A stretch of 64,000 bases of DNA from Octopus vulgaris (taxonomy: Eukaryota), in contig OX597838.1 in NCBI GenBank assembly GCA_951406725.2, positions 13,454,001-13,518,000 on the forward strand, read 5' to 3'. The notes below the pieces were generated by a model. It saw only the letters and a list, made by a program, of their open reading frames with translations. It was not told where the DNA came from and ran no database searches. A program made the position numbers and the translations under genes. Positions within the stretch are counted from its first letter, which is position 1. Every line of letters starts with the position of its first letter. This document shows positions 8,469 through 64,000 of this stretch, one piece after another.

Positions 8469-8974
8469 AATGGTGGGTGTAGCATTTGCACTACAAACAT
8501 TCAATATACTAAGATGGAAATGCTTTAATTTTTTTCCTTGGAAACACTTTCACTTCTCGTTTCATGGAACCTGAAAGCGAAGACGCGCCTATCTTTGATT
8601 TACGTAGGTACAAATACAGACAGGAAGAGAGAAAGCTCGACTTTAGCAATGGACTAGTTTATCGTTTCTTGAAAGGGAAAAAAAAATGCAAAACTGATTT
8701 GAGCATCATTTGAACTTAGTGAACAGAAATATAAAAAGACTACCAACATAGCCTTTTATGAAGCTCTTATGGGTATTATTGACGAGTGGAGAAGGGAAGG
8801 AAAAAGAGTCTCCGACAGATCAGTCAATAGAAGCAATATTGGTGATCAATGAAGATGGAGAAAGAGGAAAAAGAGTGAGATTTGTGGTGATGAGGAAGGA
8901 GGTTGTTTACGACTGTTTGTCACCTATGAAATAATATAGGAGGAGGGGGGCAGTTAGGGAGGGAGAGAGAGAGT

Positions 8975-10080: not shown

Positions 10081-10457
10081 GGAAAGAGTGAGAAATTGAG
10101 AGAGAGGGTATGAAGAAGGTGTAGAGACCGTGTAAGGGTGAATTGGGTGGAAAAGAAATAAAATCTACCCGGAAAAAGGATAGGAATATAAGGGGAGAAG
10201 GATAGAAGAGGAAAGCAAGGGAAAGAATAAGAGTGAAAAACTGTTTTATATATACAAATATATATATATATATTTATTATATATAGTCAGTTAAGACATT
10301 AAGCATTTTAACTCTCTCTCTCTTTAATAAAGACATTCTATCTTTCTCTGTATATATAAATAGAGAGAGGGATAGAAAGAGTGAGAGAGAGATAGAAAGT
10401 GTGAGAGAGAATGGGAAGAGAAGCAGAGAGGGAGCATAGCTAATGTTCAAAAAGCAA

Positions 10458-31000: not shown

Positions 31001-33427
31001 CATGGGCGACAGAGGTATCCGTGGTGGAATGGGCGACAGAGGAGTGAGAGGCGGCATGGGTGGTGACCGTGGTGGAAGAGGTGGCTACAGAGTTGGCCCA
31101 CGTGGCGGCGGCGGTGGCATGGGAGGCGATCGCGGCGGACCAAGAGGAGGTGGCGGTGGCATGGGTGGTGACCGCGGAGGTGGCGGTGGTGGTGGAGGTC
31201 CTGGTGACAGAGGCGGACGTGGTGGATTTGGAAAAGACAGAGGCCGGTAAGTTGTTTTCTTCTTTTCTTTTCTTTGTTATTAAGGAAGCAAGCTCACAAG
31301 TCATTAAAGCACCAGACATAATGCTTGGTGGAAAGTTTGACATCGCCTTTCATATTCTTGTGGGGATCAATAAAATAACTACCTGCTTCTAGCTCTCTCC
31401 CTAGAAATTTCCAAGCTTGTGTCTATATCGGGAAAGATTATTATTAGTGTTTGTAGGTTTTGTTATTTCTAGACTTCAACCACCACATAATTCATCAGTC
31501 AGTTTGTGTGGGTTTTAGTTTCATCTTATTACTCTAGTTGTAAGGTGGTGAGCTGGCAGGACCTTTAGCTCATTGGGCAAAACGCTTATGTTCTGAGCTG
31601 AAGTTCTTGTGTGGTTGACATGGCATTTTGCCCAGCTGACATTTCTTCTGTTTACGAAGGCAGCGAGCTGGCAGAATCGTTAGCACACAGGGCAAAATGC
31701 TTAGCAGTATTTCGTCTGCCGCTATGTTCTGAGTTCAAATTCCGCCGAGGTCAGCTTTGCCTTTCATCCTTTCAGGGTCAATTAAGTAAGTACCAGTTAC
31801 ACACTGGGGTCGATATAATCAACTTAATCCGTTTGTTTGTCCTCTCTGTGTTTAGCCCCTTGTGGGTAGTAAAGAAATAGATATTTCTTTTGTCCTTCCG
31901 GTCAGTTCAAATTCTGCTGAGGTTGACTATTCCTTTTGTTCAATTTGGGGTCAAATTGAACAAATGCCAGTCAAGTACTGAAGTCTGTGCAATCTACTTC
32001 CCCTACAAAGGAAAAGAACTTGAAAATTTTCAAGCCTTGTTACTATTATATTGGTTCCACTAGTCTTCTGTTGTAGGATTTCTTTCTTAAATTTTGATGT
32101 ACTCACAACTTAGCTTCACTGCTGTCATATAATAATCTCAGATGACAGGCAATAAAAGGCATTTAATTGGAGTTTGTCAAATCAACTTGGATTTGAGAGC
32201 AGCTTTAGTTACTCTTTTACTTGTTTCAGTCATTTGACTGCGGCCATGCTGGAGCACCACCTTTAATCGGGCAACTCGACACCGGGACTTATTCTTTTGT
32301 AAGCCCAGTACTTATTCTATCGGTCTCTTTTGCCGAACCGCTAAGTAACGGGGACATAAACACGCCAGCATCGGTTGTCAAGCAATGCTAGGGGGACAAA
32401 CACAGCCATACAAACACACACACGCATATATATACATATATACGACGGGCTTCTTTCAGTTTCCGTCTACCAAATCCACTCAGAAGGCTTTGGTCGGCCC
32501 GAGGCTATAGTAGAAGACACTTGCCCAAGGTGCCATGCAGTGGGACTGAACCCGGAACCATGTGGTTGGTAAACAAGCTACTTACCACACAGCCACTCCT
32601 GCGCCTGTTCTTTTTTTTTTTTCTTTCTGTCTAGGCCGTGTACATCTAGGACAGTGTTACGCACTGTACCTACTGCCCTCCCACCAAAAGACAGTAGGGT
32701 TTCAAATATCAGATTTTATTAGTCATTGTTTAACCCTTTAGTGTTCACATTCTTCTGCCAAAATTAATGCTTTTTTATCCACATTGTTTTGAACTAATCA
32801 TGCATTATCTTGTAGTTATGAGGTTTTGATGAGGTAGCTGTTAATTTTTAAGATGATATTGTAGGGTTGGTGTGAGAGACCAGATCTGGTCAGTTTGAAC
32901 ATAAAACAGGTAGAATATTTTTGGCCGGATATGGCCGGTTTAAATGCTAAAGGGTTAATGTCCGTTTTCCATGCTGGCTTGGGTTGGACAGTTTGACTGG
33001 GGGCTGGCAAGCCATAGGCTGCTGCAGGCTCCAGTCTGACCTGGCAAAGTTTTTCCAGTTGGATGCCCTCCCTAACGCCAGTCATTCTGAGAGTGTAGTG
33101 GGTGCATTTGACATTCCACTGGCACAGGAGCCAGTCAGGCAGCACTGGCATTGGCCATATCTACAATTCCCATTGATTTTGATTTTACTTGACTCTGTAG
33201 GTCTTTAGTGCGGCATGTCACCTGGCAATTCAAAGGTACTTAAATGGGCTGCTTATGTGACCTTGGTGTAGGCTACAGTTGTGATCTCACTTTACTTATT
33301 GTGTCGAATTAGCTAACCCATACCAGCATGAAAAACATAGATGATAATACTGATAATTTCTTTTCTTTGTATTTTTTTCAGACCCCAAGACAGCAGATCT
33401 GAGAGACGACCAAGGCCATATCCTTAG
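10610..33427 (+). CDS. FUS: FET-family RNA-binding protein (FUS/EWSR1/TAF15/cabeza-like), 17 coding exons, 1824 nt, about 607 aa
   Basis: join(10610..10622,15384..15420,15519..15594,15956..16097,16687..16785,18509..18829,19364..19472,23417..23454,25082..25111,25587..25693,25915..26044,26638..26715,27991..28029,28932..29034,29800..29903,30895..31246,33382..33427). All introns are GT-AG and phases are consistent. Protein: MAEPQYNYSG... QGSY-rich N-terminus; RRM (DTVFVCGL...[47 protein letters not shown]); RanBP2 ZnF ([28 protein letters not shown]); RGG boxes; C-terminus [10 protein letters not shown]. The symbol is a family label: an invertebrate FET gene is expected to be co-orthologous to FUS/EWSR1/TAF15. 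Confidence 0.95.
11553..11603 (+). ncRNA. Type I hammerhead-like motif in FET intron 1 (sense)
   Basis: agcttc-CTGAAGA-tttca tc tgaat-GAAA-cag tgctagtc ctg-TA-gaagct: 6-bp stem I, paired stem III. Confidence 0.6.
11714..11954. repeat. Near-perfect palindrome of about 240 bp centred on (TA)n
   Basis: acaattaaatatctg...ccttccaa (TA)n ttggaagg...cagatatttaattgt. Confidence 0.92.
15384..15420 (+). CDS. FET exon 2 (37 nt; [13 protein letters not shown])
   Basis: ttttcag|AATATAATTAT...GCTGG|gtaagt; in phase with exon 1. Confidence 0.85.
15519..15594 (+). CDS. FET exon 3 ([25 protein letters not shown])
   Basis: ccttcacag|CTAC...CAACAG|gtgagt. Confidence 0.9.
15956..16097 (+). CDS. FET exon 4 ([10 protein letters not shown]...TVYSQS)
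   Basis: ttcttcag|GGATAT...CAGTCAG|gttagt; SYGQ-type low complexity. Confidence 0.9.
16687..16785 (+). CDS. FET exon 5 ([17 protein letters not shown]...SYSQQ)
   Basis: ctctttcag|GCCAG...CAGCAAG|gtaacc. Confidence 0.9.
18509..18829 (+). CDS. FET exon 6 (QGSY/P-rich low-complexity domain)
   Basis: ctgacag|GTTATGGTCAG...AATTATGGCG|gtaagt; matches ORF 18490..18876. Confidence 0.92.
19364..19472 (+). CDS. FET exon 7 ([24 protein letters not shown]...; RGG1)
   Basis: ttttcag|ACAATCGC...GGCTATGG|gtgagc. Confidence 0.9.
23417..23454 (+). CDS. FET exon 8 (38 nt; [13 protein letters not shown]), counterpart of human FUS exon 7
   Basis: tatttcag|CGGTGGCAGAGGAGGCTTCAACAAAAGTTATGGTGGTG|gtaagt; RGGFNK motif. 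Confidence 0.92.
25082..25111 (+). CDS. FET exon 9 (30-nt microexon, [10 protein letters not shown])
   Basis: long polypyrimidine tract, catgcag|GCGGAGG...TATGGAG|gtaagt. Confidence 0.85.
25587..25693 (+). CDS. FET exon 10 (RRM N-half, [28 protein letters not shown])
   Basis: ttgtag|ATGGAC...ATTAAG|gtaaat; RNP2 motif. Confidence 0.95.
25915..26044 (+). CDS. FET exon 11 (RRM KK-loop and RNP1; 130 nt)
   Basis: ttcttaag|ACTGATAAG...TTTAATG|gtaagt; [10 protein letters not shown] motif diagnostic of the FET RRM. Confidence 0.96.
26638..26715 (+). CDS. FET exon 12 ([26 protein letters not shown])
   Basis: tttttcag|AAAAAG...GGAAGAG|gtttgt; RRM beta4. Confidence 0.93.
27991..28029 (+). CDS. FET exon 13 (39 nt, RGG)
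   Basis: ttttttaag|GTGGCAGAGG...GGTAGAG|gtaagt. Confidence 0.88.
28932..29034 (+). CDS. FET exon 14 (RGG2 plus start of ZnF, GDWTCPNP)
   Basis: ctttgtag|GTGGCTTT...CCTAATCC|gtaagt. Confidence 0.95.
29800..29903 (+). CDS. FET exon 15 (RanBP2 Zn[21 protein letters not shown])
   Basis: ttcatccag|AGCCTGC...GGACCTG|gtaagt. Confidence 0.95.
30215..30425 (+). mobile_element. tRNA-headed SINE-like element carrying a degenerate hammerhead-like core
   Basis: A box TGGTGTAGTGG (30222), B box GAGTTCGATTCC (30265), then CTGATGA (30343)...GAAA (30371). Confidence 0.6.
30895..31246 (+). CDS. FET exon 16 (RGG3; GGMGDRG repeats)
   Basis: gtatttcag|GTGGTTTC...GAGGCCG|gtaagt; matches ORF 30930..31250. Confidence 0.94.
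31659..31885 (+). mobile_element. SINE with Meta-domain-like core (gcctttcatcctttcggggtcgataaa); many copies
   Basis: copies at about 38140..38445, 42148..42622 (-), 44385..44795 (-), 48178..48408, 48760..48995, 59480..59630 (-). Confidence 0.8.
32210..32606 (-). mobile_element. SINE with internal (CA)/(TA) microsatellite (head ggcgcaggagtggctgtgtggtaag...)
   Basis: copies at about 1490..1700, 3430..3567, 36905..37180, 40904..41320 (+), 56990..57535. Confidence 0.85.
32734..32954. mobile_element. piggyBac-type MITE
   Basis: TTAA|CCCTTTAG...CTAAAGGG|TTAA; decayed relatives near 52600..52955 and 59634..59865. Confidence 0.75.
33382..33427 (+). CDS. FET exon 17 ([20 protein letters not shown])
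   Basis: atttttttcag|ACCCCAAG...CCATATCCTTAG; R-x-R-P-Y motif. Confidence 0.92.
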
Positions 33428-43565: not shown

Positions 43566-45651
43566 AAGTGTAATAGGTGTAAAAAAATGTGTAGTAAACT
43601 AATCAGAAAGCAAAAATTTACGCAAATGAACCAGGGGTAGGGAAGAGGATTTTCGAAAAATTCCCACGATCCGAATTTTTTCCTCATAATTTTTATAGGA
43701 AAATGGATATCTTTTACTGAAATTTTTATATAAATACCTTTCAAACAGCATAGATTACGATTATAAAGAAATTTGGGAGGAAATTTTTTCTGGCGGGGTG
43801 AGGAGAGGAGTTTCGAAAAAAACAGCGGTCTTCCACATAAGTTAATTTTTTTTTTTTTACTGTCCCCATTCCCGCTCCGAACCGATTTTGGCCAATTTTT
43901 GGCATTTAAAAACTTTGTGGGGAGCCTTTTTGGTAAAAAAAAAAAAAAAAAAGAAAAAGGAATTGTAGATATTTTCAGAGACAAGAGTGTGATTCAAGGG
44001 AGATTTGGCTGTCGTTTCTAGCACATCCCAAGACAACCTTCCTCGTTTCTTTCTCACTCCTAGCATATATTGATGTATTGATGTTTTTCAATATTTTTCT
44101 CCCCATTTATACTATAAAAAAAAAATTTGAAAATTTATGATTTTAAAAAAAAATCCCACTCCCCGCCTCTGATTGTTTCTGTTTATAATTTAAAATATTG
44201 AAGAGCCTGAGATCATTTCTGGCATTTCTCCACAGTGATTTTTAAAAAATAGGTATGTAAAAGATACCTTCGGTATAGGTACCGCAAGTGGCTTTGTTTA
44301 CATTTCTGAAGATAACAGAAACCCTTTTCTCCCACCCCTAACCCTAACACAAACCCTAACCCCCCCCCCATATATATATATGTTTCTTTATTACCCACAA
44401 GGGGCTAAACATAGAAGGGACAAACAAGGACAGACAAACGGATTAAGTCGAATACATCGACCCCAGTGTGTAACTGGTACTTAATTTATCGACCCCGAAA
44501 GGATGAAAGGCAAAGTCGACCTCGGCGGAATTTGAACTCAGAATGTAAAAAGAGACAAAATACCTATTTCTTTACTACCCACAAGGGGCTAAACACAGAG
44601 GGGACAAATAAGGACAGACAAAGGGATTAAATCGATTACATCGACCCCAGTGCGTAACTGGTACTTAATTTATCGACCTCGAAAGGATGAAAAGCAAAGT
44701 CGACCTCGACGGAATTTGAACTCAGAACGTCACGGCAGACGAAATACGGCTACGCGTTTCGCCTGGCGAGCTAACATTTCTGCCAGCTCACCGCCTTTAT
44801 ATATATATAAAATAAAAAGAAATCTTGAAATGTATCCGGTACTTCCGGTACCTATACCGAAGTTACGCCAGATAAATGGGCGCTATTTAAATACAGAGGT
44901 CCCGATGCATCTATGTAAGGATATGTTTTTACAGTGCATACTCGGTAGGGTTAGTTTTAGTTTTAGGGTTAGGGTTACGTAGATGCGTCAGGACCTCTGT
45001 ATTTAAGTAGCACCAGAAAATGGGGTTTTTTTTCTTACACACACACACGGCCTTGCTTAATTAAGATAGGAGTAAACATTTAAATTACCATTTTTTTTTC
45101 GTTGATGCTTATATCCCACCAATGGAGCACGCGTGTAGTCCATTGATATCATCATTAAGGTGGAGGGGAAGAAAAAAAAAATCATAAATTTTCCAAATCG
45201 TTTTTTTTTATTTTTTTAATAAAAAGATGCTCTCATCATTTCGAAAATTGTGGTGAAAAACAACTGGAAAAATCCCCCGTCAAAACGGAGAAATTCCAAC
45301 TTATGTGGTCTTCTTGATCCGAAACTCCTCTCCTCATCACTCCAGAAAAAAATTTCCCCCCACAAATTTCTTTATAATTGTAATCTATTCCGTTTGAAAA
45401 GTATTTGTATAAACTTTCATTAAAAGATACCCATTTTCCTGAAAGTTATGAGGGGAAGAAAGTGGATCGTGTGAATTTTCCCTAAATCCTCTCACCACAC
45501 GTTCAGGAAAAAAATTTTCCCCACAAATTTCTTTCTAATCGTAATCTATGAAAGGTATTTATATTAAATTTCATTAAAAGATATCCATTTTCCCGAAAGT
45601 TATGAGTAAAAAATCGGATCGTGTGAATTTTCCGAAAGCCCTATTACACTT
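43566..45651. mobile_element. Composite foldback element of about 2.1 kb with nested insertions
   Basis: termini aagtgtaatagg / cctattacactt; 43640..43843 is inverted relative to 45297..45640, where the subunit is duplicated. Confidence 0.6.
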
Positions 45652-46960: not shown

Positions 46961-47360
46961 TGTGAGTGAGAAACGAATGAAAAGCCAAGAACAAGTTTCT
47001 GTTGAGATAACATTAATTTCTTGACCAATGGTGCATCAAAATTACCATCACATGACAGGTAGATCGTTAATTCCATGGTAACCAGCGCACCTTAACCTAG
47101 TATATCAGGAGAAAAGAAAAAAGAAAAAAAAATCCCATTAAGCAAATGTTATTCAGCGACAGTTGATACCTGTTGACATAATATTTAGCCACGTACTTTG
47201 TGTGTGAGTTTTATATATACAATCTGCTGTCTGGGACACGGCTGTCACCATTGATATAATCATTACTGCTACAAATAATCCGCTCAGGAAACTCTATTAA
47301 AAACTTTTATTTTCTAAATTTTAAAGTATACCAAAAACAGTAAATATATTTTCAGTACAC

Positions 47361-48139
47361 ATGCAAATCTACTGGAATATCTTGGTCTTTTTTGCTACAA
47401 GCACTGTTTCCGTGCTTGGAGATATTAAGCAGGATGTGGTCTACGAGTTCAGTTCTCTCACCTTCGAATCGGTATCGGGAGTTCACAGTTCGTCAGAAAA
47501 TGTGGTTACGGGCATTCAAGTCTACAACGATACAGTCTACGTGAACATACCACGCCTCACTCCAAATGTTCCAGTAACGTTGGCGACTGTCGCGAAGAAA
47601 AACGGTAAAGTTGTGTTCAAGCCTTTCCCAACCTTGCAATATCAGGAATTAGGTAACTGCAATGCCTTGCAATCGGTCGGCGCAATACGCGTGGTTCGTA
47701 AAACGAACCTGCTCTACATAGCAGATAATAAGTACTTAGACTGTAATGCCAAATTAATTATTTTCGATTTAGTCAAACGAACGATAAAAAAGAAATATGA
47801 ATTTTCCAGTTCGGATATCGATGAAAAACTAAACTCCACACAATTTGAGGACATCGTCGTCGATGGTGCAGGAAATGCGTACATAGCAAATGCTGGAAAA
47901 CCCGGTTCAATCATAGTTTACAGGAATAAGATGTCGAAAAGCTTTGTTTTCCATGATCGAATGTTGGAGATCATCGATCCTGTCACTTTCAAATTTGGCA
48001 ACGATTCGTACAATGTGAATCAAAGTATAAGCGAAATGACACTTTCACCCGATGATGATTACTTATTCTTCGTTATTCATTATAAGAAGACTGTCCAAGT
48101 CCCGACAAAATCTTTTGAGGATATTGCAACCCGAACGCG
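47361..48139 (+). CDS. Yellow / major royal jelly protein (MRJP) family secreted beta-propeller protein, first large coding exon (partial gene)
   Basis: 260-aa ORF with signal peptide (MQIYWNILVFFATSTVSVLG) and yellow-family motifs: YVNIPR..NVPVTLATV, KPFP..QELGNCNALQSV, LLYIAD, AKLIIFDL, DIVVD..AYIAN, MTLSPD..YLFF. The apparent stop TAG lies inside a donor site (CG|gtaggt at 48140), so the CDS probably continues. Downstream exon not found in this window. Confidence 0.82.
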
Positions 48140-49736
48140 GTAGGTGGAATACATTCATTTGAAACTTTTATTGTTTTGTGGCGAGCTGGCAGAAACGTTA
48201 GCACGCCGGGCGAAATGCGTAGCCGTATTTCGTCTGCCGTTACGTTCTCAGTTCAAATTCCGCCGAGGTCGACTTTGCCTTTCATCCTTTCGGGGTCGAT
48301 AAAATAAGTACCAGTTACGCACTGGAGTCGATGTAATCGACTTAATCCGTCTGTCTGTCCTTGTTTGTCCTCTCTGTGTTTAGCCCCTTGTGGGTAGTAA
48401 AGAAATATATTGTTTGTGGTCGTGACGCCTGTTAAGGCTGCGATTCGGCAGTCGTTGGAGCAAAGGGGCGCATGCAGCCAGTCATAAAACCTCGTTGTTG
48501 TATAATCATCTCATTCATATTCGTTTTATGTATTGTCCCCTCTGTGGTGTCCTATCTGTCCTTGTTTGTCCCCCTCTATTTTGGGCCCTTGTGGCTAATA
48601 AAGAAACAGTCGTAGAGCAAAGGATTTTATCAAACACTCTTCCTCACAAATCAGCTGCCTTCTACTTCTGTTCCACGCGCGCTGTATTTCCCACCGCCCT
48701 TTCTCCCATTGTCCCTTCGCATCCTCGTGCACACTTCTGCACAAGATATTTTCCCTGTTAAGGTGGCGAGCTGGCAGAAACGGTAGCACACCGGGCGAAA
48801 TGCGTAGCCGTATTTCGTCTGCCGTTACGTTCTGAGTTCAAATTCCGCCGAGGTCGACTTTGCCTTTCATCCTTTCGGGGTCGATAAAATAAAGTACCAG
48901 TTACGCACTGGAGTCGATGTAATCGACTTAATCCGTTTGTCTGTCCTTGTTTGTCTCCTCCATGTTTAGCCCCTTGTGGGTAGTAAAGAAATATATATTT
49001 TCCCTGTTGAATTTCGTCCCTACAACATATCTTCTTAACACCCCTTCATCTCCCTGTATTTGTGTTCTCTCACTGCATTACCCTTCACTCCACTTCCATT
49101 CTCCTTTCGCAGTCTCGCGAACGTACCCAAACACTCATCATATTAAATCCCTGATTTCACTTCACTTAATACACTTCACTGTAACATGAGTGGAAGCTCC
49201 ATTACCTCTTCACCACCTCTCTCTTCTTTCTATCTTCCTCCTCACTCTCCCGTCTCCACTCTCTCTTTCTGTCTCCTTCTATATCCCCCATCTCTCCAAC
49301 TGAGGTAGCCATGTATCACCTCTACTCCTACACACTAATTTCTGTCCATCTAATCACACTCTTAACATCTCATCCTCTGACACAAAGTCATCTCCTTCAG
49401 TGAAGGATCTTGTCTTACAAATTACTTGGTGATCTCAATTCTGCTAGTGCCTCATGAAGGGCACCCAGTACCCTCTGTAAGTGGTTGGCATTAGGGAGAG
49501 CAGTCACAGAAAACATACCAAAGTAGACATTGAAGATTTGTGTAGTCTTCTGACTTGCCAGCTCAGGCCAAATTGTCCAAATCATGGCAGTTGTAGAAAT
49601 GAGTTGCGACATCACTGGTACCAAGCTGTATTGGACTTTGCCTTTCCCTTGGATAACATCAGTGGTGTGGAGAGGGGAAGCTGGTATGCATGGGCAACTG
49701 CTGGTCTTCCATTTTGAATGATGATGATGATGGTTT

Positions 49737-49799
<63 letters not shown>

Positions 49800-50445
49800 G
49801 CTGTGGGCACGTAACAAACACCATCCGATCGTGGCCGTTTGCCAGCCTCATCTGGCACCTGTGTCAGTGGCACATAAAAACACCATCCGAGCGTGGCCGT
49901 CTGCCAGCCTCGTCTGGCACCTGTGTCGGTGGCACATAAAAACACCATCCGAGCGTGGCCGTTTGCCAGCCTCGTCTGGCACCTGTGTCGGTGGCACATA
50001 AAAAACACCATTCGAGCGTGGCCGTTTGCCAGCCTCGTCTGGCACCTGTGTCGGTGGCACATAAAAACACCATCCGAGCATGGCCGTTTGCCAGCCTCGT
50101 CTGGCACCTGTGTCGGTGGCACATAAAAACACCATCCGAGCGTGGACGTCTGCCAGCCTCGTCTGGCACCTGTGTCGGTGGCACATAAAAACACCATCCG
50201 AGCATGGCCGTTTGCCAGCCTCGTCTGGCACCTGTGTCGGTGGCACATAAAAACACCATCCGAGCGTGGCCGTCTGCCAGCCTCGTCTGGCACCTGTGTC
50301 GGTGGCACATAAAAAAACACCATCCGAGCGTGGCCGTTTGCCAGCCTCGTCTGGCACCTGTGTCGGTGGCACATAAAAAACACCATCCGAGCGTGGCCGT
50401 TTGCCAGCCTCGTCTGGCACCTGTGTCGGTGGCTCATAAAATCAC
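49800..50445. repeat. Tandem array of about 10 x 62-64 bp units inside a SINE-like element
   Basis: unit CACCATCCGAGCGTGGCCGTTTGCCAGCCTCGTCTGGCACCTGTGTCGGTGGCACATAAAAA. Confidence 0.93.
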
Positions 50446-50607
50446 CCACTACACTCTCGGAGTGGTTGGCGTTAGGAAGGGCATCCAGCTGTAGAAACAC
50501 TGCCAGATCTGACTGGCCTGGTGCAGCCTTCGGGCTCCCCAGACCCCAGTTGAACCGTCCAACCCATGCTAGCATGGAAAACGGACGCTAAATGATGATG
50601 ATGATGA

Positions 50608-50665
<58 letters not shown>

Positions 50666-50791
50666 GTGCAGGAGTGACTGTGTAGTAAGAAACTTGCTTC
50701 CCAACCACATGGTTCCAGGTTCAGTCCCACTGCATGGCACCTTGGGCAAGTGTGTGTACGTACCTACAATCAATTTACAGCATCCTTTACT

Positions 50792-50869
50792 GGACCTACG
50801 GGCATTTCAACTGCATTGACTGCACATTGTTGGATATGCAACATCGTCAGTGCAGTTTCATCAGGGTCC
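50792..50869 (-). ncRNA. Type I hammerhead-like motif with long stem II
   Basis: reverse complement reads ggacc-CTGATGA-aactgcactgac...gtcaatgcagtt-GAAA-tgcccg-TA-ggtcc: 5-bp stem I, 12-bp stem II with one mismatch. Confidence 0.65.
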
Positions 50870-51394
50870 TTACTCTCTGCCATTTCGTGAAACTGAAGGA
50901 ATAAAAAAAATAAATAAATAGTAAATTTATTAGAATAACAAACTAAGAATATTCCTTTTGAAATGAGAGGAACGGTAAACTTGTAGTAGTAATAACAAAT
51001 CTACATAAACATTCAATCCAACCGTGACCTATTTTTAGGACTATGTTTCTCGCTTCACCTACCACATAGAGGTGAACCTCAGTCAAGATTCCCACGACTA
51101 TTAATAGCAGCACCCACACCTCCTACTAAACACTTCATTCGGGTTTTCTGATTATTGCTTCTGTTTTGAACACAACATGTGATTCCTCTTACACCCAGCT
51201 TTTCACTTAGTACTTTTGTACTATGAAATATATGTGTGTGAAGGGGCATGGATCAGTGGTTAGAGAGTATTGGACTCACAGCAAGACCCTTTATTTCGCG
51301 TTGCTCCATTTCACTCAGCTGTAGAAATGGGTTGCAATGTCACTGGTGCCAAGCTGTAGCAGCCTTTTGGAACCAAGTTTCTTACTACACACTG

Positions 51395-51489
51395 TGTATA
51401 TGTATGTGTGTGTGTGTGTGTATTTGTGTATGTGTGTGTATGGGTGTATATATGTATGCATGTATATATGTGTACATATTACATGTACA

Positions 51490-51543
<54 letters not shown>

Positions 51544-51925
51544 CATCTATATATATGTATACATATATATCTACACATACATATATATATATATATATAT
51601 ACATATATATCTCTACACATACATGTATACATATACATCTATACATATGCACGTATACATACACAGCTATACATATACATGTATACATATACATCTATAC
51701 ATATACAGCTATACATATACAGCTATATATATACATATACATACATACATACATACATATATATTTTTATATATATATATATATATACATCTGCACATAT
51801 ACATGTATACATATACAGCTATACATATATACATATACAGCTATACATATACATATACATCTATATATATACATGTATATATATATACATCTATCTATAT
51901 ACATGTATATATATACATCTATATG
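51395..51925. repeat. Complex (TA)/(TACA)/(TG) microsatellite
   Basis: directly visible. Confidence 0.95.
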
Positions 51926-53199
51926 AATATAAATAATTTGGGAAAACAAATTTCCAAATCAATCAGGTGTGACCCTACAGTGTTACGTGCATCTACATAT
52001 CGTACTTTGGGGTCTTATTTATCCTATTCTTGAGGGCCCTTTCTTCAGACCTTTTAGCATCTCAGTAACTTGTCACTCTTTCAGCCATGTCCAGTATGCA
52101 AATCTATCTGCTCGACTGCCCAAGTATGGGCTCCATCTATCTCATCTGTTAGATCAATAGCTTTTTGCTATTGACTGCAGATATGCTAAAGAAGATCCTT
52201 CTCTGTCCTACACTCTCTGGTGTTCCCTAGGGTTTAATTATGTCCCTTATTCTCTTTCTAATCCTTCAATGATCTGCTTGCCATCATGTCCATCAACTCT
52301 CTCTCTTACACAGACAATAGCACTTGTTCTTCACTAACCTCCTCCAACCAAGTGTCACTCACAAGCTACATAGACAACACATGCCAAAGCAGTGCTGAGT
52401 CCATGAACAAAGTCCTTGAAAGCATCCCCAATGGTGAACAGCCCACTTAACTATAAATATGCAAAGTATCTGATAAAAGTCGGTATTCAATTCTCTGGGA
52501 TTAATCGATACGCAGGTATTCTATTTCAGATAATACAAAAATAACCTGAGTATATCTGACAGTAAACTCATGGTATCAGTTTGCACATCCCGAAATAACA
52601 CTTAATTCTTTAGTGTTCAAATTAATATGTCAAAAGTAATCCTTATTCATTTTCATTTTTAAAAAATTTATCTGATATTATCTTGTAGCTTCAAGATTTG
52701 AAAGATGTAATTGTTTATTGACATTGCAGGGTAGGTGTGAGATACTGGTTCTGGCCAGTTTGAGCATAAAATGAGTAGAATATTTGGGCCGGATATAGCC
52801 GGTTTAAACCCTCTCTCTCTTTCGGAGAGGCACTAAGCAGCTATACGCACACATACACACAAGGCAGTAACTTCCACCTACCGAATTCAATCACAAAGCT
52901 CCGGTCGGCTCGAGGCTATAGTGGAAGACACCTACCCAAAGTGCCACTAAAGGGTTAAAGGATATAACCTAAATTACCAGCTATATAATGTACTTCATTA
53001 ATTATATCATACTTTAGTTAATACTTATATTTATTAAATATGAAGGAACTATATGTGTTTCAGGATTTTTTTGCTGATACTAAAATGGTGATTTGAGGAA
53101 AAAAGGAAGATATGTATTTGAATTTTTCTTGTTATATATCAAATTTAAACACAGACACTTATACTCTGATGTTTAATCTTATATCTCACATTCTGTATT

Positions 53200-55990
53200 T
53201 CCCTAATCAGTACTCCAGAGTTTCTTCCAGGACAGTGGTCGCTCAAGTGCTTGGTCCTACTGCATCCATTGACCTTGGTGAGCAAGCCCTACTGCCTTCA
53301 TCCGGTGACCCTCTTCTGTTGAACCACACATCCTTTACACTATGGGTTCTCATGCTCCTGGTATTGGTGTTTTCTACCTCTTGGTACTGTAATTGCCAGT
53401 TCCTAGCTGTCCTTGACACACTACACCAACAATCTCATGGTGTTCTGAGTCTGTCTCTACTTCCTTCATAGTTTCCTGGGGTTTCCATTTTCTTCCCCAC
53501 ACTTTATGATCTTGTTGGTGTGTCTGACTTCCTCGTCCTCAGACAGAAGCAATGTGGTGAATGCTCTTGCCTCTGTGGTTTTGAATTCCTCCATCTCTGG
53601 TGAAATTTGTAGGCAGAGTTTAGAGGTGTTGCTGTACAGATTGTTCTGAAACTAGGAGAATGCCGGCCACCTTCACATGCACTTACTGTACAACCTCTCC
53701 ATTGCCTCTATCCGAATCATGGAAAAGCCATAAAGCAAAAATGGCCACTGCAGTCTGGGTACGATGCCGTATTGGAAGCACTGCAGTTTGAATCTTCCCA
53801 GTAGCTGGCTTTTATCAACTGCCTTTAGCCAGTTGCCTAGTTGAGTTTCAATGTCTTCAGCATCACCAATATCCTTAAGGGAATGATCATAATTTTTCCC
53901 AGGGCAGCGGACTTTTTCTTGGATTGTCAGAATCTCAGAACTCTGAATGTTGAAGGTGTCACTTTAACCCTTTCGTTACCAACCCGGCTGAAACCACCTC
54001 TGGCTCTGTATTACAAATGTCTTGTTTTCATAAGTTTTGAATTAAAATCTTCCACCAAACCCTAGTCACAAATTTATGTTCCTAACACTAGCTGAATGAT
54101 AACTAAGTTATTTTACTAAATTCTTTGTTATATTTAACCCTTTCGTTACCAACCCGGCCAAAACCGGCTCTGGCTCTGAGTTCAAATATCTTATTTTCAT
54201 AAGTTTTGACTTAAAATCTTCCATCAAACCTTAGTCACAATTTATGTTTGTAACACTCGCTTAATGATAACTAAGTTATTTTACTAAATTCTTTATTATA
54301 TTTAAAGTAATTGAAAGAAACACAGAGCATCTCAAAATAAATACAGTAACGAAAGGGTTAAAGTAATTGAAAGAAACACAGAGTATCTTAACATAAATAT
54401 GGTAACAAAAGGGTTAAGGATATTCAAGTTTCAAGATTTTACTGGGTTGGACTTCAAGTATGACCATGTGGCCATCTTTTCCAGTGGGCTTTAATGTCTG
54501 CTGTGTCCCTTTGATTGATGGCATCATAACTTTTGTCATCCATGAATGACCTGCAAACTAAATTTCCTGTTTCCGTCAGTTTTGGGACCTCTGGACTACT
54601 TCCTTCCTATCTCTACCAGTAGATCCATGGCCACCACAAAGAGTACCATGGAAATAGTGTACCTTGCCATAACGGGTTTTTCCAATTGCTGCCACTTAGT
54701 GGTAAAATTTCCCATAGTAAACCTCATCCTCAGTGGATACATATGGAACATTATAAGTCTGACTACGTCTGTTGGTACTTGGTAGTACTCCAATGCACTT
54801 TGGAGTAGCTGGTGAGGCATGCTTGAGTACAATTTGGCAAGATCCAATTACACAACAGAGAGTATTGTTCATCCTTGTTTCTTTAATGACAAGGCCAATC
54901 ACTTCAAGGCATTCAGAGTGGACTGGGACACTTTCTGAACACTTGTGCCGATGTGCTCATTGGCCAAGAGATATGAGGTTAAACTTTGAACAATGATGGT
55001 TCAAAAGATCTTCCCCTCAACATCCAGAAGGGAAATCTCTTGAAACTGGTTAAGTTCTGCTGAGTTTTCTTCTTTTAGGGGCAAAACAACCCTCAGTGAA
55101 TCAGGATTAGGGGCAAAATAGCCCTCCAGTCCAGGCTTACTGCTTTTTCTTCCAGATTAAACATAAAAGTCTAGCTACTTTAACAGAAGCAGACAATTTT
55201 TGTATATTCTATACATGGTGCCAGATGGCCCTGGTGCAGAACCTGCATGATATTTTGCTACCACTGCCCTCACTTTGTTAAAACTGATGTCCGCCATGCT
55301 GAAGGCAGTGTGGAGTTTCAGTGTTGGCAGTGGATAGGAACAATCCCCTTATAGCATGCCTCTTCTGAGGTCACCATACACTACTGCTATTCTGCTTTCA
55401 ACTTTTCTAGAGCCTATTAACCTCCCACTTTTTGACTCTCTGAAGAGGTCAGCTGTGAACTGGAAGGAGTTGTTAAAAAAAGGCTTTGTTTTGCTTTCAC
55501 TTCTCCCTCTCTGTTTTTTCTGAAGTGACTCTGTTCTGCAAAGCTGGGGTAGGTTTCTTCATAACTCCATAGTAAGTTAGTTTAAAGCACCTTTTCTTTC
55601 ATCATCCACTTATTTCCAACTTTTCTTCAGCTGCCTTCGTTGTTTGCTTAATCCTACCATCTGATGCAGCCTCTTACTAGGGCCATTCTGCTTGTTGCTT
55701 TTGCTTTTCTTCACTCCAAAGATATCTTGGAATAACTGGTACCACTTGCACCAAGATTCTTATCTTCCTAGTGTGCCGCTCTTTAAAATATCCAGAATGA
55801 TGTTCAAGTCCTTGTCCAACTGGGTCCATTTCAGATCTGTTGATAGTGGAAAATTCAGCTGTAGTTTCTTCTCAAAACCCTTGGGGCTGTCAGATTCATC
55901 CACTCCTCTTGCACATTAAGCAAGCTAAGCATAGAAGTACTGGGAACCTTGGTTTGCCTCCTGGCAATCTTCTGATTGCCATGGGGTGTA
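53200..55990 (-). mobile_element. Degenerate non-LTR retrotransposon (HERO/R2-superfamily-like RT)
   Basis: fragments AGSAPGPSG.MYRIYKNC and DLAKLYSSMPHQLLQSALEYYQVP...FTTKWQQLEK...ISMVLFVVAMDLL, with stops and frameshifts; clade assignment tentative. Confidence 0.7.
53968..54413. mobile_element. piggyBac-type MITE containing a second copy of itself (54138..54357)
   Basis: both copies have TTAA|CCCTTTCGTTAC...GTAAC(G/A)AAAGGG|TTAA. Confidence 0.85.
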
Positions 55991-57198
55991 AGTGACTGAG
56001 ACAACAACTCCCCTCTCCCAAGTGGGACACTGGGCCATCACAGGGTTCGTTTCCCAGCTATTACTGGGGCTCAGTTACTGCTGGGTGGACCGGAACAACG
56101 TGAAATGAAGTGGTTTGCTCAAGAACACAACACGCTGCCCAGTCCAGGAATCAGAATCGTGATCGTAAGATCACGAAAGCAACCCCCTAACCACCAGGTA
56201 CATGCTTTCACTATGGTTACCACCTCACCATAGTTTACCTAATTTACAAAGCTTGTGATACAAAGACAGGTGCTTCACCATTGTCTGTCCTTACCTTTCT
56301 GTTTTTGCTAAACAAAGAGTGACAGGTGGCTACAGATGCGGTATTGTAGGTTAATTTGTGTATGGGTGTATATATTCACACACTCGCTCTTGTTGAACAA
56401 AGCTGCTGATAATTCATTTCAGGTCAGGACTGTATATTTAAATGCTGATTATATTTCCTGAACATACAACTTATGATTCATTGATGTCATTATGAATATA
56501 ATTATATATACCACCTCTCTCTCTCTCTCTCTGTCTCACTCCACACACACACACGAACGTTCTTGCACTCATACAAGCATAGGCGCAGGTGTAGCTGTGT
56601 GGTAAGAACCTTACTTCCCAACCACATGGTTCCGGGTTTATAGCAAGTGGAGTGCCTCATGGAACTATCTTGGGGGCTGGTACTGCTTATGGGAGCATTT
56701 TTGAACATGCCTTCAGTTACACAAACAACCACACTTACTAGCTAAACCAATGACGCAAAAGTAGTACAAACAATCAAGGAACCTTTTGATGCTAATCTTC
56801 TACAGAAAGTCCCAGATGCCATATATGAACAGGCTGAAGAAAACAACATGCAAATTCAATGCAAGAAAATTCCAAGCCATCTGCTACCAGCCTGTTTGTG
56901 CTGACATGCCACAACAAAGATACTTTGAACTGAAAAGAGCAGCAATCCTAGAGTCAAGTACAGTTCATGATCTGAGGATTGGTATCTTTTTCTCTTTTAC
57001 TTGTTTCAGTCATTTGACTGCGGCCATGCTGGAGCACCGCCTTTAATCGAGCAACTCGACCCCGGGACTTATTCTTTTTGTAAGCCCAGTACTTATTCTA
57101 TCGGTCTCTTTTTGCCGAACCGCTAAGTAACGGGGACATAAACACACCAGCATCGGTTGTCAAGCAATGCTAGGGGGACAAACACAAAAACACCCACG

Positions 57199-57265
<67 letters not shown>

Positions 57266-57303
57266 ACAATTGAGGGTAAAATTAATTAATGTAATATAAG
57301 GGT

Positions 57304-57361
<58 letters not shown>

Positions 57362-57589
57362 CATACATATATATGACGGGCTTCTTTCAGTTTCCGTCTA
57401 CTAAATCCACTCACAAGGCTTTGGTTGGCCCGAGGCTATAGTAGAAGACACTTGCCCAAGGTGCCACGCAGTGGGACTGAACCTGGAACCATGTGGTTGG
57501 TAAACTAGCTACTTACCACACAGCCACTCCTGTACCTATATGAGAGGTAACACTTCATTTTATGTACATATCACCTAGATTGTGACAGT

Positions 57590-58285
57590 CTGCTGGTGAA
57601 TGGCTTGATAGATTCTGAGAACTTTCAGAACCAGGGACCAGGAAACTATGCTAGTTCTATAGATAACATTTGCCTTCGGCTGTTTGAACTCTTGCTCTCA
57701 ACTGTGGCCTCACCACAATATCAAATTAACAATGCAACTTGAAGCAGTTCAGTGGTGCTACACCAGGAAGATTGCATCAGTGGAACAGTCGAGCCATTGG
57801 GAGAGACGGAAAGAGTTTCAATTCTACTCCCTGGAGCAAAGACAGGAGAGATATGCCATGATATACATATGGGATTATCCTAGAAGGGTTGGCACCAAAC
57901 TTTGGCATAGAATGTTATACCAGCCTCCAAACTGGAAGTCACTACACTGTTCCAAAACTCTCACCCATTCTGTTTAGAGTGAGGCCCATGTACTGCAATA
58001 GCTTGGGATTCAAAGACCCACAGCTATTTAATATCTTGCCAAAACAACTGAGAGAGCTGCATGAAGTAGGGGTGGATGTTTTCAAGAAAAAACTTGACCT
58101 CCTGCTGTCTATGATCCCAGATGAACCTACGTCACAGCAAGAAACTCAAAACAGGGCAGCAGAGGCAAACTTCCTCCTTCACCAAAAGCCAGTCACAAAA
58201 GAGTGGCCATTTGAAAAGGGGATAATATTGCAGTGCTACAGCATGGCCACAGCCTTTGATGAGCTGAAACACATAAAAGAATACA
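57590..58285 (+). mobile_element. LINE 3' remnant (CR1/L2-like RT C-terminus)
   Basis: LEAVQWCYTRKI...WERRKEFQFYSLEQRQERY..IYIW and PQLFNILPKQLR...VFKKKLD motifs. Confidence 0.75.
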
Positions 58286-58905
58286 CACACACACACGTAC
58301 ACACATCCAAGTGTACGTATGCTGATTAAAATAATTTGCTGAACTTTTTAAAGTTGTGACATGGGAAAGTTTCCCAGCAACACCTTCTGCATGTAGTCCA
58401 TAGAGTTAAGCTGCTGCAAGTATACTTAAATATAGTGAACCAAAAATCTCTCAATTTCTCTCTCTCTCTCTCTCCTTCTCTCTTGTTTGAAATTATCGTT
58501 GGTAAATATATTGATAATGTTCTGTTTGCTGTGATTAATATCAGTTTGTTTGGAGGGATATTGTAGATTTAGATTAGAATAGTGTTGTGTGGGGGGAAAG
58601 TGCGATATAGTTAAAAATAGAGGTGAAAAAGTATGGTGGGAGAGAAGGAGAGTGTGAGTGGAGATTGGCAAAAAGAGCAGAGTAGTGGTGAGATTGTAGT
58701 CTGTGTGCAAAGAAGTAGTTAGTATGAGTGTGAGTGTGTGTGTGTGTGAGAGAGAGAGAGTAATAGAAATGAGAAGTCTAAGTGAAATCTATATGAGTAA
58801 GAGAGAGAAAATAAAACAGAAAGAAAGAAGAGGGGGTGAGTATGCATGTTGGCCTCAGAGAGAGAGAGAGAGATGTGTGAAAGCATGTATTTGCGAAGGA
58901 ATAAA

Positions 58906-58970
<65 letters not shown>

Positions 58971-60309
58971 AGTGAGTGTGCAAATGCAACAGAGGGTTGA
59001 CAAATTGCTTGTTTTTCTAACTAAATATTTCTGCAGAGAAAGAAAGAGAGCAACAGCAACATTAATTGTGACAATAACTGCAATGCAAACAAGCAGATCC
59101 ACCCAAAACGATAAAAACAAAACTGATATCCTCTGAGAGGTGAAGAAAGTTTGAAGAGACCTCAAAGCCGAAGACGTGTGAATTAGGTGGATTTCAGCCA
59201 TTGACCTGTTTTATAAACAATATCATATACAAAAAAACATTGTATGTATTACAATTGTTGTAGTAGTCAAGGTATTGACAGTGGGGACAGCCACAGTGGT
59301 GTGTGTGTAAGCATGTGTGTGTCTGTGTGTTTGTAGTCACTTTAACAGTTTTTTTCTTTTTGTTTTTCCTTTCTGGGTTTGGAGAGAAAGAGAGAGAGAG
59401 AAAGACGGGGACATTGGATATTGTGGGCATTCTGAGCCTGGTGATATTATTGAGGCTGTTAATGTTCGGCTTAACCTATTTCTGTACTACCCACAAAGGG
59501 GCTAAACGCAGAGAGGACAAACAAGGACAGACAAACGGATTAAGTCGATTATATCGACCCCAGTGCGTAACTGGTACTTATTTAATCGACCCCGAAAGGA
59601 TGAAAGGCAAAGTCGACCTCGGCGGAATTCTGCTTAACCCTTTGGCATTCAAATTCTTCTGTAAAATGCATTGCTTATTTATTGACATTGTTTCAAATTA
59701 ATCATGCATTATCTTATAGCTTTGAGATTTCAACGATGTGATTGATTGTGTATTTTTAGAATGATAAATGATAGGGTAGGCGTGAGAGGCGAGATTTAGG
59801 TGGTTTGGACACAAAACAGGTTGAAGATTTGGGCTGGATGTGGTTGGTTTAAATTCCAGAGAGTCAAACTATTGCATGTTGATGACTGCAGTAAAAAATA
59901 TGGAGCTGGTGATGAGTGATTTCAGAAGACGATTGTTCTTGGGAGAATAATCTTTGGTGATTGTTTTGTGCAGGGACTAGTGAGGCTGGAAACAGCTTGT
60001 ATGAGGTAAAAGGAAAAATGAGTGAGTTGACAGAGCAACTCTGAAGAAAGGGCCCTCAAGAATGCCAGACAACTGATCTAATTGGTTGCAGTAGAGCAAA
60101 CTCCATTGAATGGCCAGGTGATGGTATAAAACCAGGCAATATGATATATCTGTGATCCCCAAAAACGAGGTGGTAGGGACCTTTATGGTTAGGTAGTCTG
60201 TAGGAACTAGGAGCAAGGGGCAGGGGGTAACATTGTTAATAAGTGGAGAACCCAAAACATAGCAATTTCATCACTCAGTTCCCATGAGGAGGGAAAATTT
60301 TTCAAAAAC

Positions 60310-61160
60310 CTCATATCACCAAAGATCCTGATCCTTTGTCATCTCATCCATCAGGCAGAGAGTCCTGAGTTCAGCCTTCACCACTCCACCCCATACTTTC
60401 CTGAGTCTCCCTCTTCTGCAAGCTTTAAGTGAAAACGACACTTCTTTATATAGCTGTCCTCATCCTTCTACATCACATGTCCATACCAGTGGCAGCTACT
60501 TTCTTGAACACATCTGATTCCTCTTATACCCAGTTTTTTCCCTCAGCACCTTTGTACCAATTCTTTCACACACATCCACATTGCACATCCAGTGAGGCAT
60601 GCTTGTGGCATTTCTTTCTAATCTCCTCGAGTCCTCTGCATTCAAGGCCCATGTCTCACTACCATACAGAAGTACACTTCTAATACAAGCATCATACAAT
60701 CTGAACTTTTCTCAATCAGGTCTTTAATCTAATGACTATATTCTTAGAGCAACAAACCTCCCCTACTAATTGCATCTTCTAATTATCAACTTCTTCTAAT
60801 GAGCCGTCTAGGCATTTAAGAGAGCTGGTTTCAGGTGTGCTTGTACGTTCTACTCCAGTGCATTTATCAAATATGAAGCTTATATTTTTGGATAGTCTGC
60901 CAGTGATTCCACTACATCTCTTGTGTGTCCATAGTTTACATTGACTTTAGTTTACGGAATTTATACATACTTGTTTTCTACAAGAGCAATGCCATTTCCC
61001 TAAAAGTACCAGAGTCCTGTTTTCTCTCCTATTTACTAAAACCTTTGTCCATGCATCTACTTTAAAAGTCTTCTATTCTAGGAATAGCTTCCATGCTGGG
61101 ATTTCCTTCTGTAATTCCCCTATAGAATTCAATTATAAGGACTAGATCATCAGTCTTAAA
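60310..61160 (-). mobile_element. RTE-like LINE remnant
   Basis: YDACIRSVLLYGSETWAL...RRLERN..SM..WMCNV motif. Confidence 0.75.
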
Positions 61161-61749
61161 TTCCACTTCATGGACAACCAGTCTTAAACTCCACTTCAAG
61201 TTTTTTTAATAATAATTCTTGTTTAACACATGCATCTTTTCTCAGGATAAGTTATGATTTCAGATCAATAACTTGAAGTTTCATAACTTTATTGTTGACT
61301 GAACATTTAAATACAAACTGACCTTTTGGTTGGCAGCTGTGTTGACAATTCTTTTCAGTATGACATTACTTAACTGTCATGGACCTGTGTAAAATATGTA
61401 TAGTTTGTTGTTTGGAATATTTGTTTTGTGTTGCAGTGTCATACTTGAAATCAATACTCTGTCTTCTACTAGTATGACTTGTGTCCAGTCAGTTGTGATG
61501 CCATCTGGAAATATGAGATGCATTCCAGAAGTTTTGATACTTTTTTTTCAAGACAGTGAGTTATAAGATGTCTAAGATTATTGTCATTTTAGTATATCAT
61601 TACTGCACATCCAGTAATTTGACCTACCAACTTTAGTTATTCTAGACTGAAGGAGACGACTGTAACAGCACTTTTATCATATCCTGCAAAAAAACACTGC
61701 TTGCCACTGCCGACTAGCTTGCAGAAAGCAGTTGGGATATTTGGAAGGT

Positions 61750-62280
61750 TGCAATGTAATGAAGTTTTGTGTTAAACTGGGCAAAAATGCCACAGAAATT
61801 TATGAAATGTTCGACACTGCTTATGGATTAACTTTTTTGCTGGCATAAGCAGTCCAAGGATGGTTGAGAAGTGTGGGAGAGAGAGGGGTGTCAGAACATC
61901 AGTGCTGGTTGAGAAAATTCACAATTTTCTGGTTGAAGACCATCTTATGTCTATAAAGACAATAAGCATATAGTTTGGGTTTGGTGTGACAACTGTACAT
62001 AGAATTGTTTATGACGATTTGAACAGGTGTAAAGTTTGTTCCCAGGTTGCTCAGTGATGGTAACCAACTACTTGACAAAGATGGGTATCAAAACTGTCCC
62101 TCACCCCCTCCTTACAGTCCAGACCTTGCTCCCTTTGACTTTTGGCTGTTCCCCAAGCTGTAGGAGAACCTCGAGAGCAGTTGTTTTGAAGATGAAAGAG
62201 GCTGTGACAAGAGTCCTGGACACCTTTACTTTAGAGAACTTTAACTTCCATGGCGCTTTCATGAAGTAACCGGAATACTA
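61750..62280 (+). mobile_element. Degenerate mariner transposase remnant
   Basis: KFCVKLGKNATEIYEMFDTAYG and PHPP(Y)SPDLAPFDFWLFPKL motifs across frameshifts. Confidence 0.75.
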
Positions 62281-62359
62281 CAATTTGTGGTGCTGACATA
62301 AAAAAATGTATTTCACAAAGTCTTAACTCTAGTGACCTACTAAATAAACCTGTCTGTGT

Positions 62360-62880
62360 TGCAACAGATGTTGAATATATTGCAAGATCTGATGTTTTTA
62401 CTGATATAATGAATCATCTACAAACTCTTAACTTGGCACTCCAGAGAAAGGCTAAGATTATTTCTAATCTTACTCAGTTTTCAGCTTTCAAAGTAAAATT
62501 AAAACTTTTCTAAGAGACATTGTTGAAAAATTTCAGGCACTTTGCCAATCTCAGAAATGGAGTGAATCCATTTCCTGATGCTAAAATAAAAGACCACAAA
62601 CCGGAATACCAGCATAAATTACAAAGATTACAAAGATTACTTGATAATTTCCTAACCAGGTTTGATGACTTGCACAAGGTGAAGCAGGACTTTCTTGATG
62701 TGATCAGTGATGGTTGTCCAGTTCTCAAACCTCTAGTTATGGAATCACGAGGCAATGGATTTACAGAATTTAGGTCTAAAGAAGATCCGTAGATCCTTGT
62801 CTACAAAAGAGTTCTGGAAACAAGTTCCAGAAATAGAATGTCTTAAACTGAAGAAAATAACTGTGCAACCACTCTGTAAT
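62360..62880 (+). mobile_element. Degenerate hAT-like transposase remnant
   Basis: DLMFFTDIMNHLQTLNLALQRKAKIISNL...NFRHFANL...LLDNFLTRFDD resembles hAT/GTF2IRD2-like C-terminal region. Confidence 0.55.
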
Positions 62881-64000
62881 AAATTTTATGAAATGGAAGC
62901 ATTGTGTAGGCCTTACAAGCCACCAACTTATTGAGCTAATTCATATAGCCTTGATGGAAACCTGAAAGACCCCTGCTAGCAATAAATAGCAGCTTTAATA
63001 GCCTGATATGTGTTGCATTGCCATAAAAATTTGCAAGTCTCCTTTTATAAGATAGGATCTGGTTTAAATAACTCTAATTTTATTGGTTTGCCTTTTTACA
63101 TATTTTTCATGTTCCGACTAGATATTTACTAAGATAAATATTTTAATTATTTTTACCTTTTCTCTTTTATTCTTGATTGTCTAATTTCATGTTACTGAAT
63201 GCCAATTTGTACAACCTATGCATAAGTACACTTGAACATATGTGTGTATGTCTATGTGCGGATGTTCGTTTCAATTTCACAGACTAAATTCACCTGCATT
63301 CCGCATCTGCTGTCTCTTGCTCACCCCCACCTCCAACTCTGTTGATTTAGCTTTCTTTTCCCCGGAGACACAAGGTGCCATAAATTATCTTTACAACTGC
63401 CACACTTCCGAACTTCAAATTATAAAGGTAATTTATATACACCCCACCCTCAATGTTTTTGTAGTTCATTATTGTATTAAATATGCTAAAACTTTTGGTG
63501 TACAAACTTAAACTAAATCAACTGCATTCATGAATAAATATTATTGCATACATACAAAATGTGTTTGTAGCAATTAAAAAACATTCTTTTGTGTCACTAG
63601 TTACGCTCATCAGACTACAGCCAGCCTGGGGCACCATCATGGAAGTATTTAATCAATCATATCAACCCTAGTACTTTTTTTTAAAGTTTGGCATACTTCT
63701 ATTATTGATCCAAGTTGTGTGGGACAGAAACACTGACACAGATACAAATGTAAACATGGTGTGAATATTGTTCATGTCTTGTGACTCTCAAACACCTGAA
63801 CTTTATAGTCTTGTTAATCAAGTTTCACCAACTTTGGATTAAATGTTTCAAGTAGATTTTGGCATTTCATCTCAGGGGAAGTTGAAAGGTTACCTGCAAT
63901 TTGGATCTCAGCCATAAACCAGCATGTTTTGGAATATTTACACTTGCATCCCCGCAATAAATTTTCAGAATTTACCATATAAAAATGACATTCGAAAAAA

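Follow-up and report, generated by a model that had tools for sequence, protein, structure and literature searches.

The yellow genes of animals were surveyed by Rosani et al. in 2019 (PMC6678240), and an octopus representative was included. In that work the yellow transcript of Octopus bimaculoides was rebuilt from RNA-seq data and the protein was then modelled. The species has one yellow and one DCT gene. Expression of yellow in skin, suckers and visceral mass exceeds 100 TPM, DCT is nearly confined to the retina, and a melanogenic role was proposed for yellow. The authors favoured the presence of yellow in the protostome/deuterostome ancestor, followed by losses. Discussed in the same paper, as a distinct idea, is that the entire eukaryotic family may have come from bacteria very long ago. 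Since the O. bimaculoides orthologue, its skin expression and the melanin hypothesis are already published, the gene described here is not new. The supplement holds the O. bimaculoides sequence and at least eight more cephalopod sequences; all 12 matches to 'vulgaris' in it belong to Arion, and an O. vulgaris sequence is absent from it. Only some yellow proteins are dopachrome conversion enzymes (DCEs). According to the accessible part of PMC5085778, yellow-f and f2 have this activity and recombinant yellow-y does not. Other yellows are structural (PMC6678240; PMC13538373 in its accessible part), and in the latter source tortoise beetle Yellow-x provides a precedent for a structural, glycosylated extracellular yellow. 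The dopachrome-rearranging activity of cuttlefish ink, mentioned in an earlier note on this DNA, is real (accessible parts of PMC4052311 and PMC5085778).

We analysed a window of 64,000 nt from Octopus vulgaris (contig OX597838.1). An ATG at 47361 opens a reading frame of 260 codons, followed by a TAG at 48141-48143. This frame contains the first coding exon of a yellow/MRJP gene (47361-48139, + strand). The exon has 779 nt, corresponding to 259 full codons plus 2 nt, with the last codon split (phase 2), and it encodes residues 1-260 of 407. The encoded peptide matches the first 260 residues of CAI9740646.1 (O. vulgaris, 407 aa) at 100% identity, which confirms the cephalopod host that the earlier note had guessed. 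Orthologues were found in O. sinensis (XP_029650946.1, 99% identity), in O. bimaculoides (the DCE/yellow protein XP_052832718.1, also 407 aa, 86% identical) and in Argonauta hians (GAB1608141.1, 57% identity). By eye, the N-terminal 240 residues of XP_052832718.1 match the corresponding entry in the available part of the PMC6678240 supplement, and His-333 and Tyr-352 agree with Table 2 as contained in the available part of that paper. The O. vulgaris gene is very probably the known yellow orthologue, inherited within animals.

The exon ends at a canonical splice donor (G|GTAGGT at 48139/48140; donor bases GTAGGT at 48140-48145, +). The in-frame TAG consists of donor bases, which explains the truncated 260-aa models in databases. 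The exon accounts for only about two-thirds of the full-length protein. A tblastn search of the 64-kb window with the 407-aa protein gave no convincing match for residues 261-407 (best stray match E 9.7). Therefore, we infer an intron of more than 15.8 kb that occupies 48140-64000 (+) and runs past base 64000; the exon or exons for residues 261-407 would lie beyond this base. Upstream of the ATG, an acceptor-like pyrimidine tract ending in AG (47339-47355, +) is located 5 nt before the start codon and may mark an intron in the 5' UTR. Colinearity of 47169-47360 with a related octopod record would be consistent with a long 5' UTR and also with unspliced sequence. In contrast to the donor after codon 260 in O. 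vulgaris, the gene table in the available part of PMC6678240 lists 0 introns for O. bimaculoides. This entry probably derives from the 260-aa model. Two squid/cuttlefish-like gene calls (P0013 and P0173) end at most a few residues away from the codon-260 point, and these end points suggest that an intron at this position is common to coleoids. The O. bimaculoides 260-aa and 407-aa models fall in one cluster. UniRef lists a truncated O. bimaculoides protein, A0A0L8H478 (P0003), as 'Adipocyte plasma membrane-associated protein', a name that seems wrongly given to a fragment of a yellow protein.

Further features of the window were recorded alongside the exon. A dispersed repeat of ~240 nt begins 38 nt into the intron (48178-48415, +; families D3, D4 and D6, pairs I1-I5). 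It has a second copy at 48763-49001 and inverted copies within 44376-44792, and appears to be SINE-like. A tandem array with a 62-nt unit covers 49816-50440, its copies being 93-95% identical. The long purine-rich tandem repeat at 8910-10286 is open in several frames and looks non-coding. An RNA-binding gene has exons at 18506-18838, 25918-26049, 29756-29911 and 30870-31247 (+). It encodes a Gln/Gly/Ser/Tyr-rich segment, an RRM (E 6.6e-7), a RanBP zinc finger (E 8.8e-4, below the cut-off) and an RGG tract, a layout that we take to fit FUS/EWS/TAF15. The body of this gene is poor in CpG, and a CpG-rich stretch lies near 13.3 kb. No tRNA was predicted by ARAGORN in the 64-kb window.

Membership in the yellow/MRJP family had been proposed from sequence motifs, and a Pfam search and a structure prediction had been suggested as checks. 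Both supported the proposal. The exon translation alone matched Pfam MRJP (PF03022) with E 3.9e-7 and 30.1 bits, above the gathering cut-off of 19.8, and the full protein reached E 1.2e-12 and 48.2 bits. An AlphaFold2 model, computed with a 76-sequence alignment, is a six-bladed propeller with a mean pLDDT of 90.9 and a pTM of 0.88. According to the predicted secondary structure, the exon encodes the N-terminal closing strand, blades 1-3 and three of the four strands of blade 4 (47421-48139, +), with blades assigned from strand order. The propeller is nearest to solved members of the family: the same five entries, MRJP1 (two), Aedes DCE, LJM11 and 2qe8, were best in both Foldseek and VIA-align. 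VIA-align gave Z 36.8 for MRJP1 (rmsd 3.6, 346 aligned), Z 36.5 for Aedes DCE (rmsd 2.7, 333 aligned, 19% identity), Z 34.5 for LJM11 (rmsd 2.7, 324 aligned) and Z 34.0 for Anabaena 2qe8 (rmsd 2.6, 307 aligned). The next entry after these family members scored Z 25.4. A phmmer search of the PDB with the single octopus protein returned only LJM11 (E 0.68), and an NCBIfam search gave no match.

The earlier note had described the product as secreted with a signal peptide. A hydropathy scan supports a predicted signal peptide of residues 1-20 (47361-47420, +), which is identical in three Octopus species. The best 12-residue mean of the hydrophobic stretch is 2.11, and a V-x-G cleavage-type motif is found by eye at residue 20. 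The full protein contains five N-glycosylation sequons, four of them encoded by the exon (N56, N158, N214 and N220), together with the exon-encoded Cys100 and Cys128. The mature chain is basic (pI 8.9) and has about 41 kDa before glycans. GPI signals consist of small omega-site residues, a polar spacer and a terminal hydrophobic tail. Read by eye, the C-terminus of the full octopus protein has small residues at 382-387, a spacer at 388-391 and a hydrophobic segment at 392-407, and no cytosolic part follows. Thus simple secretion is an incomplete description, and the full-length protein is likely to be GPI-tethered. We examined 149 proteins, the octopus protein included, and a GPI-type tail was seen in 42 of the 119 with a complete propeller end, so this is a common variant within the family. 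Many mollusc and brachiopod yellows carry such a tail, as in octopus, and by eye it is found in all 8 cephalopod entries of the available part of the PMC6678240 supplement. An R-E-K-R furin-type site (378-381) precedes the tail in three of four octopod proteins, namely those of the three Octopus species and not that of Argonauta.

The origin of the gene was addressed with a homologue set of 150 matches. Twenty clusters were looked up. Nine of the 20 were taxon-named, and all nine are animals (argonaut, brachiopod, bivalve, three gastropods, sponge, termite and wasp); the other matches carry no taxon name. The nearest named non-cephalopod relatives are the yellows of Arion, Aplysia, Haliotis, Sinanodonta and Lingula, with 27-34% identity. 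The sponge cluster, P0155 (XP_065842960.1), contains a two-domain yellow protein of Oscarella lobularis, in contrast to PMC6678240, where the family was reported absent from Porifera. Bacteria were represented by 11 plasmid-borne genes. The best of them scored 50.5 bits (rank 156 of 181), whereas the top non-cephalopod rows reached 136-160 bits, and the best plasmid match had 25.6% identity. A single-protein scan of bacterial chromosomes revealed no relative among 67 pattern matches. A profile word search scored 8000 proteins and recovered only 6.

A mixture-model tree was calculated from 22 labelled rows out of 163, after unlabelled rows, near-duplicates and four bacteria had been dropped. 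The 15 animal rows formed a clade (100/99) against 7 bacteria. Cephalopods were placed inside the animal clade on a long branch, at a fork without a clear sister. Grouping cephalopods with the other molluscs was not rejected (p-AU 0.247). Grouping them with the nearest sampled proteobacteria was rejected (p-AU 0.0004), this bacterial group having been chosen after the first tree was seen. In a FastTree analysis of all 163 rows, cephalopods, together with other long branches, took a basal position in the non-bacterial group, a placement that is likely caused by long-branch attraction. A quick 46-row tree placed cephalopods with P0009 (SH-aLRT 88) inside an animal-containing group; the grouping with P0009 is weakly indicated. 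The two named insect rows group together as a separate clade, and the trees contain no named yellow-f sequence.

The exon is uninterrupted from ATG to donor and CpG-rich, as had been noted earlier, with a CpG o/e of 1.36 compared to 0.51 for the whole window. Eleven of 1234 non-overlapping 779-nt sliding windows reach 1.36, and these lie in two places, near 13.3 kb and 42.4 kb. The ratio is 1.12 at the repeat-filled start of the intron and fades to 0.26 distally; in the body of the neighbouring RNA-binding gene it is 0.37. Such a distribution would be expected if, in the manner of molluscs, methylation covered the bodies of housekeeping genes and spared tissue-specific 5' exons. A putatively unmethylated 5' exon is the better reading of the CpG richness. 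Because GC is 41%, the elevation continues into the intron start before fading, and the neighbouring gene body is depleted, CpG content is not an argument for transfer.

Two alternatives concern the gene itself. A horizontal origin had been suggested, in which the cephalopod lineage would have taken up the gene from bacteria, and the gene would owe its CpG richness and long exon to this source. The o/e of 1.36, the existence of bacterial homologues, the long cephalopod branches and their ambiguous position among animals could be taken in its favour. However, the best bacterial score lies far down the list, all taxon-named clusters are animals, the gene contains a spliceosomal donor, its GC of 41% lies below the 46-68% of the 11 bacterial loci, and the window has two other places that are just as CpG-rich. 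In the phylogeny of bacterial, insect and mollusc homologues that had been called for, cephalopods do not nest among the sampled bacteria, and nesting with the nearest of these is rejected by the AU test. For the sampled bacteria, a cephalopod-specific transfer is largely refuted by these comparisons, and we regard it as extremely improbable. The other alternative is a decaying or truncated gene whose only product is the 260-aa fragment, and it would account for the stop directly after codon 260, for the database entries of 260 aa and for the strong divergence of the octopus protein from the family consensus. Here, too, the chance is minimal in our view: 407-aa models exist in four octopod species, the RNA-seq assembly yielded a full O. 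bimaculoides transcript (PMC6678240), the Octopus species are 86-99% identical to each other and the predicted propeller is complete and confident.

Next to the fold, the ligand pocket was compared. A consensus was built from 147 rows that are neither cephalopod nor bacterial, taking the 107 columns with at least 60% conservation. Octopus keeps 45 of the 101 filled consensus positions, compared to a median of 79% for the 147 rows from which the consensus was built. Among 130 near-complete rows, the three from octopods rank at the bottom, below the bacteria. N163, D177, D275, W333, D335 and N350 are replaced in octopus; they are kept in 8-11 of the 11 bacterial rows and in most others. According to the AlphaFold2 secondary structure, the replaced positions sit at the starts of the first blade strands. 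In such propellers these starts line the channel. Serotonin is contacted in LJM11 by Thr327 and Asn342 (two hydrogen bonds each) and by Phe344 (accessible part of PMC5094789). In the profile alignment these residues correspond to Gly335, Thr350 and Tyr352 of octopus, and the amine-binding set is thus not retained. LJM11 Asp328 corresponds to Lys336. At the positions of Gly335, Lys336 and Thr350, Aedes DCE has Asn, Asp and Asn; at several positions that are replaced in octopus, it too deviates from the mollusc consensus. A P-G-K-M motif in blade 6 was found in every full-length cephalopod sequence examined, squid and cuttlefish included, within the available parts of the sources. As judged from these alignments, coleoids have a predicted pocket in common that differs from both insect types characterised so far. 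Because no catalytic residues of insect DCEs were found in the literature searched, the pocket argument against a DCE is indirect. P0009, the closest match without a cephalopod label (32%), keeps most consensus pocket residues and might represent the state before pocket remodelling.

We consider it rather probable that the protein is a glycosylated propeller, grouped with its animal relatives, which is GPI-tethered on skin and sucker epithelia and acts in ligand binding or as a matrix component rather than as an insect-type dopachrome enzyme. The signal peptide would be cleaved after residue 20, GPI would be attached near Ser384 and the protein would be held on the outer cell surface of these epithelia, with optional release at the R-E-K-R site. 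A ligand-binding or matrix role is most likely and a non-DCE function is presumed. Our search, mostly of open-access literature, found no functional test of a cephalopod yellow and no structure paper on Aedes DCE.

A different function would follow if the octopus protein were a true DCE, with its cuttlefish orthologue being the dopachrome-rearranging enzyme of Sepia ink, held by the tail in the melanosome lumen or on the surface of skin cells, and with an active site remodelled independently. Several observations fit this. The Sepia enzyme is melanosome-associated and preferentially forms DHI like the insect enzymes (accessible parts of PMC4052311 and PMC5085778). Near-exclusive expression of O. 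bimaculoides DCT in the retina and high yellow expression in skin would suit a pigment role, as argued by Rosani et al. (PMC6678240). In fold, Aedes DCE is as close a match as any other member of the family, and the conserved P-G-K-M of blade 6 suggests a selected pocket. On the other hand, octopus has Lys336 and Thr350 where LJM11 and Aedes DCE both have Asp and Asn. The Sepia enzyme is said to be near 85 kDa and to be inhibited by copper chelators, and this size does not agree with the mature octopus chain. The Sepia and insect enzymes also differ in substrate preferences (PMC4052311, accessible part), and one review filed the cuttlefish enzyme as Trp2-related (PMC5855855, accessible part). 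Among the 361 proteins listed in the available part of an O. vulgaris ink proteome (PMC10142993), no match was found by accession, name or motif; the list was filtered for 'characterized' proteins, which makes this a weak negative. We therefore regard this alternative as unlikely, and DCE activity of any kind in the octopus protein would be similarly unlikely. Still more doubtful is the specific proposal that coleoid yellow is the gene behind the dopachrome-rearranging enzyme described from cuttlefish ink in 1994, as a GPI-tethered, DHI-forming protein with a rebuilt pocket (Lys for the Asp of insect DCE) that would be shed by furin in Octopus. If true, a biochemical activity known for 30 years would gain its gene, and one fold would be seen to perform the same chemistry with two different pockets. 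A pigment role as such is a fair hypothesis that has already been published (PMC6678240). The earlier note had also considered a biogenic-amine scavenger like the sand fly yellow-related salivary proteins. The LJM11 fold is shared and Tyr352 matches Phe344, a main-chain contact, but Thr327 and Asn342 are lost, and Lys336 in place of Asp328 reverses the charge, which would make amine binding less favourable. The high expression reported for skin, suckers and viscera (PMC6678240) and a tail that suggests tethering also speak against this role, and we give it very little credence.

As the orthologue has been published together with its skin expression and the melanin hypothesis, the overall significance of the locus is small. 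The additions to the published account are the likely GPI tether, the long intron, coleoid-wide remodelling of the pocket, the sponge homologue and the test against a cephalopod-specific transfer. The main text of PMC6678240 on the O. bimaculoides protein does not use the term 'GPI'. Compared with the known systems, Aedes aegypti DCE (PDB 9W1K) and Drosophila yellow-f/f2 have the same six-bladed MRJP propeller as the octopus protein, and Aedes DCE also has the aromatic-Pro pair at the start of blade 6. In contrast, Asn-Asp in blade 6 of Aedes DCE is Gly-Lys in octopus, a later Asn is Thr, and Tyr-Arg in blade 2 is Gly-Ala. Lutzomyia longipalpis LJM11 (PDB 3Q6K) shares the fold, but its amine-binding Thr327 and Asn342 are not kept and octopus adds a hydrophobic tail. 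The aligned snail yellows keep the N-D, D-G-I and W-x-D consensus positions, whereas coleoids have replaced them. Apis MRJP1 (PDB 5YYL, 7ASD) is the top structural match to the octopus model. Like tortoise beetle Yellow-x, MRJP1 is a secreted matrix component, whereas the octopus protein has a predicted terminal anchor signal.
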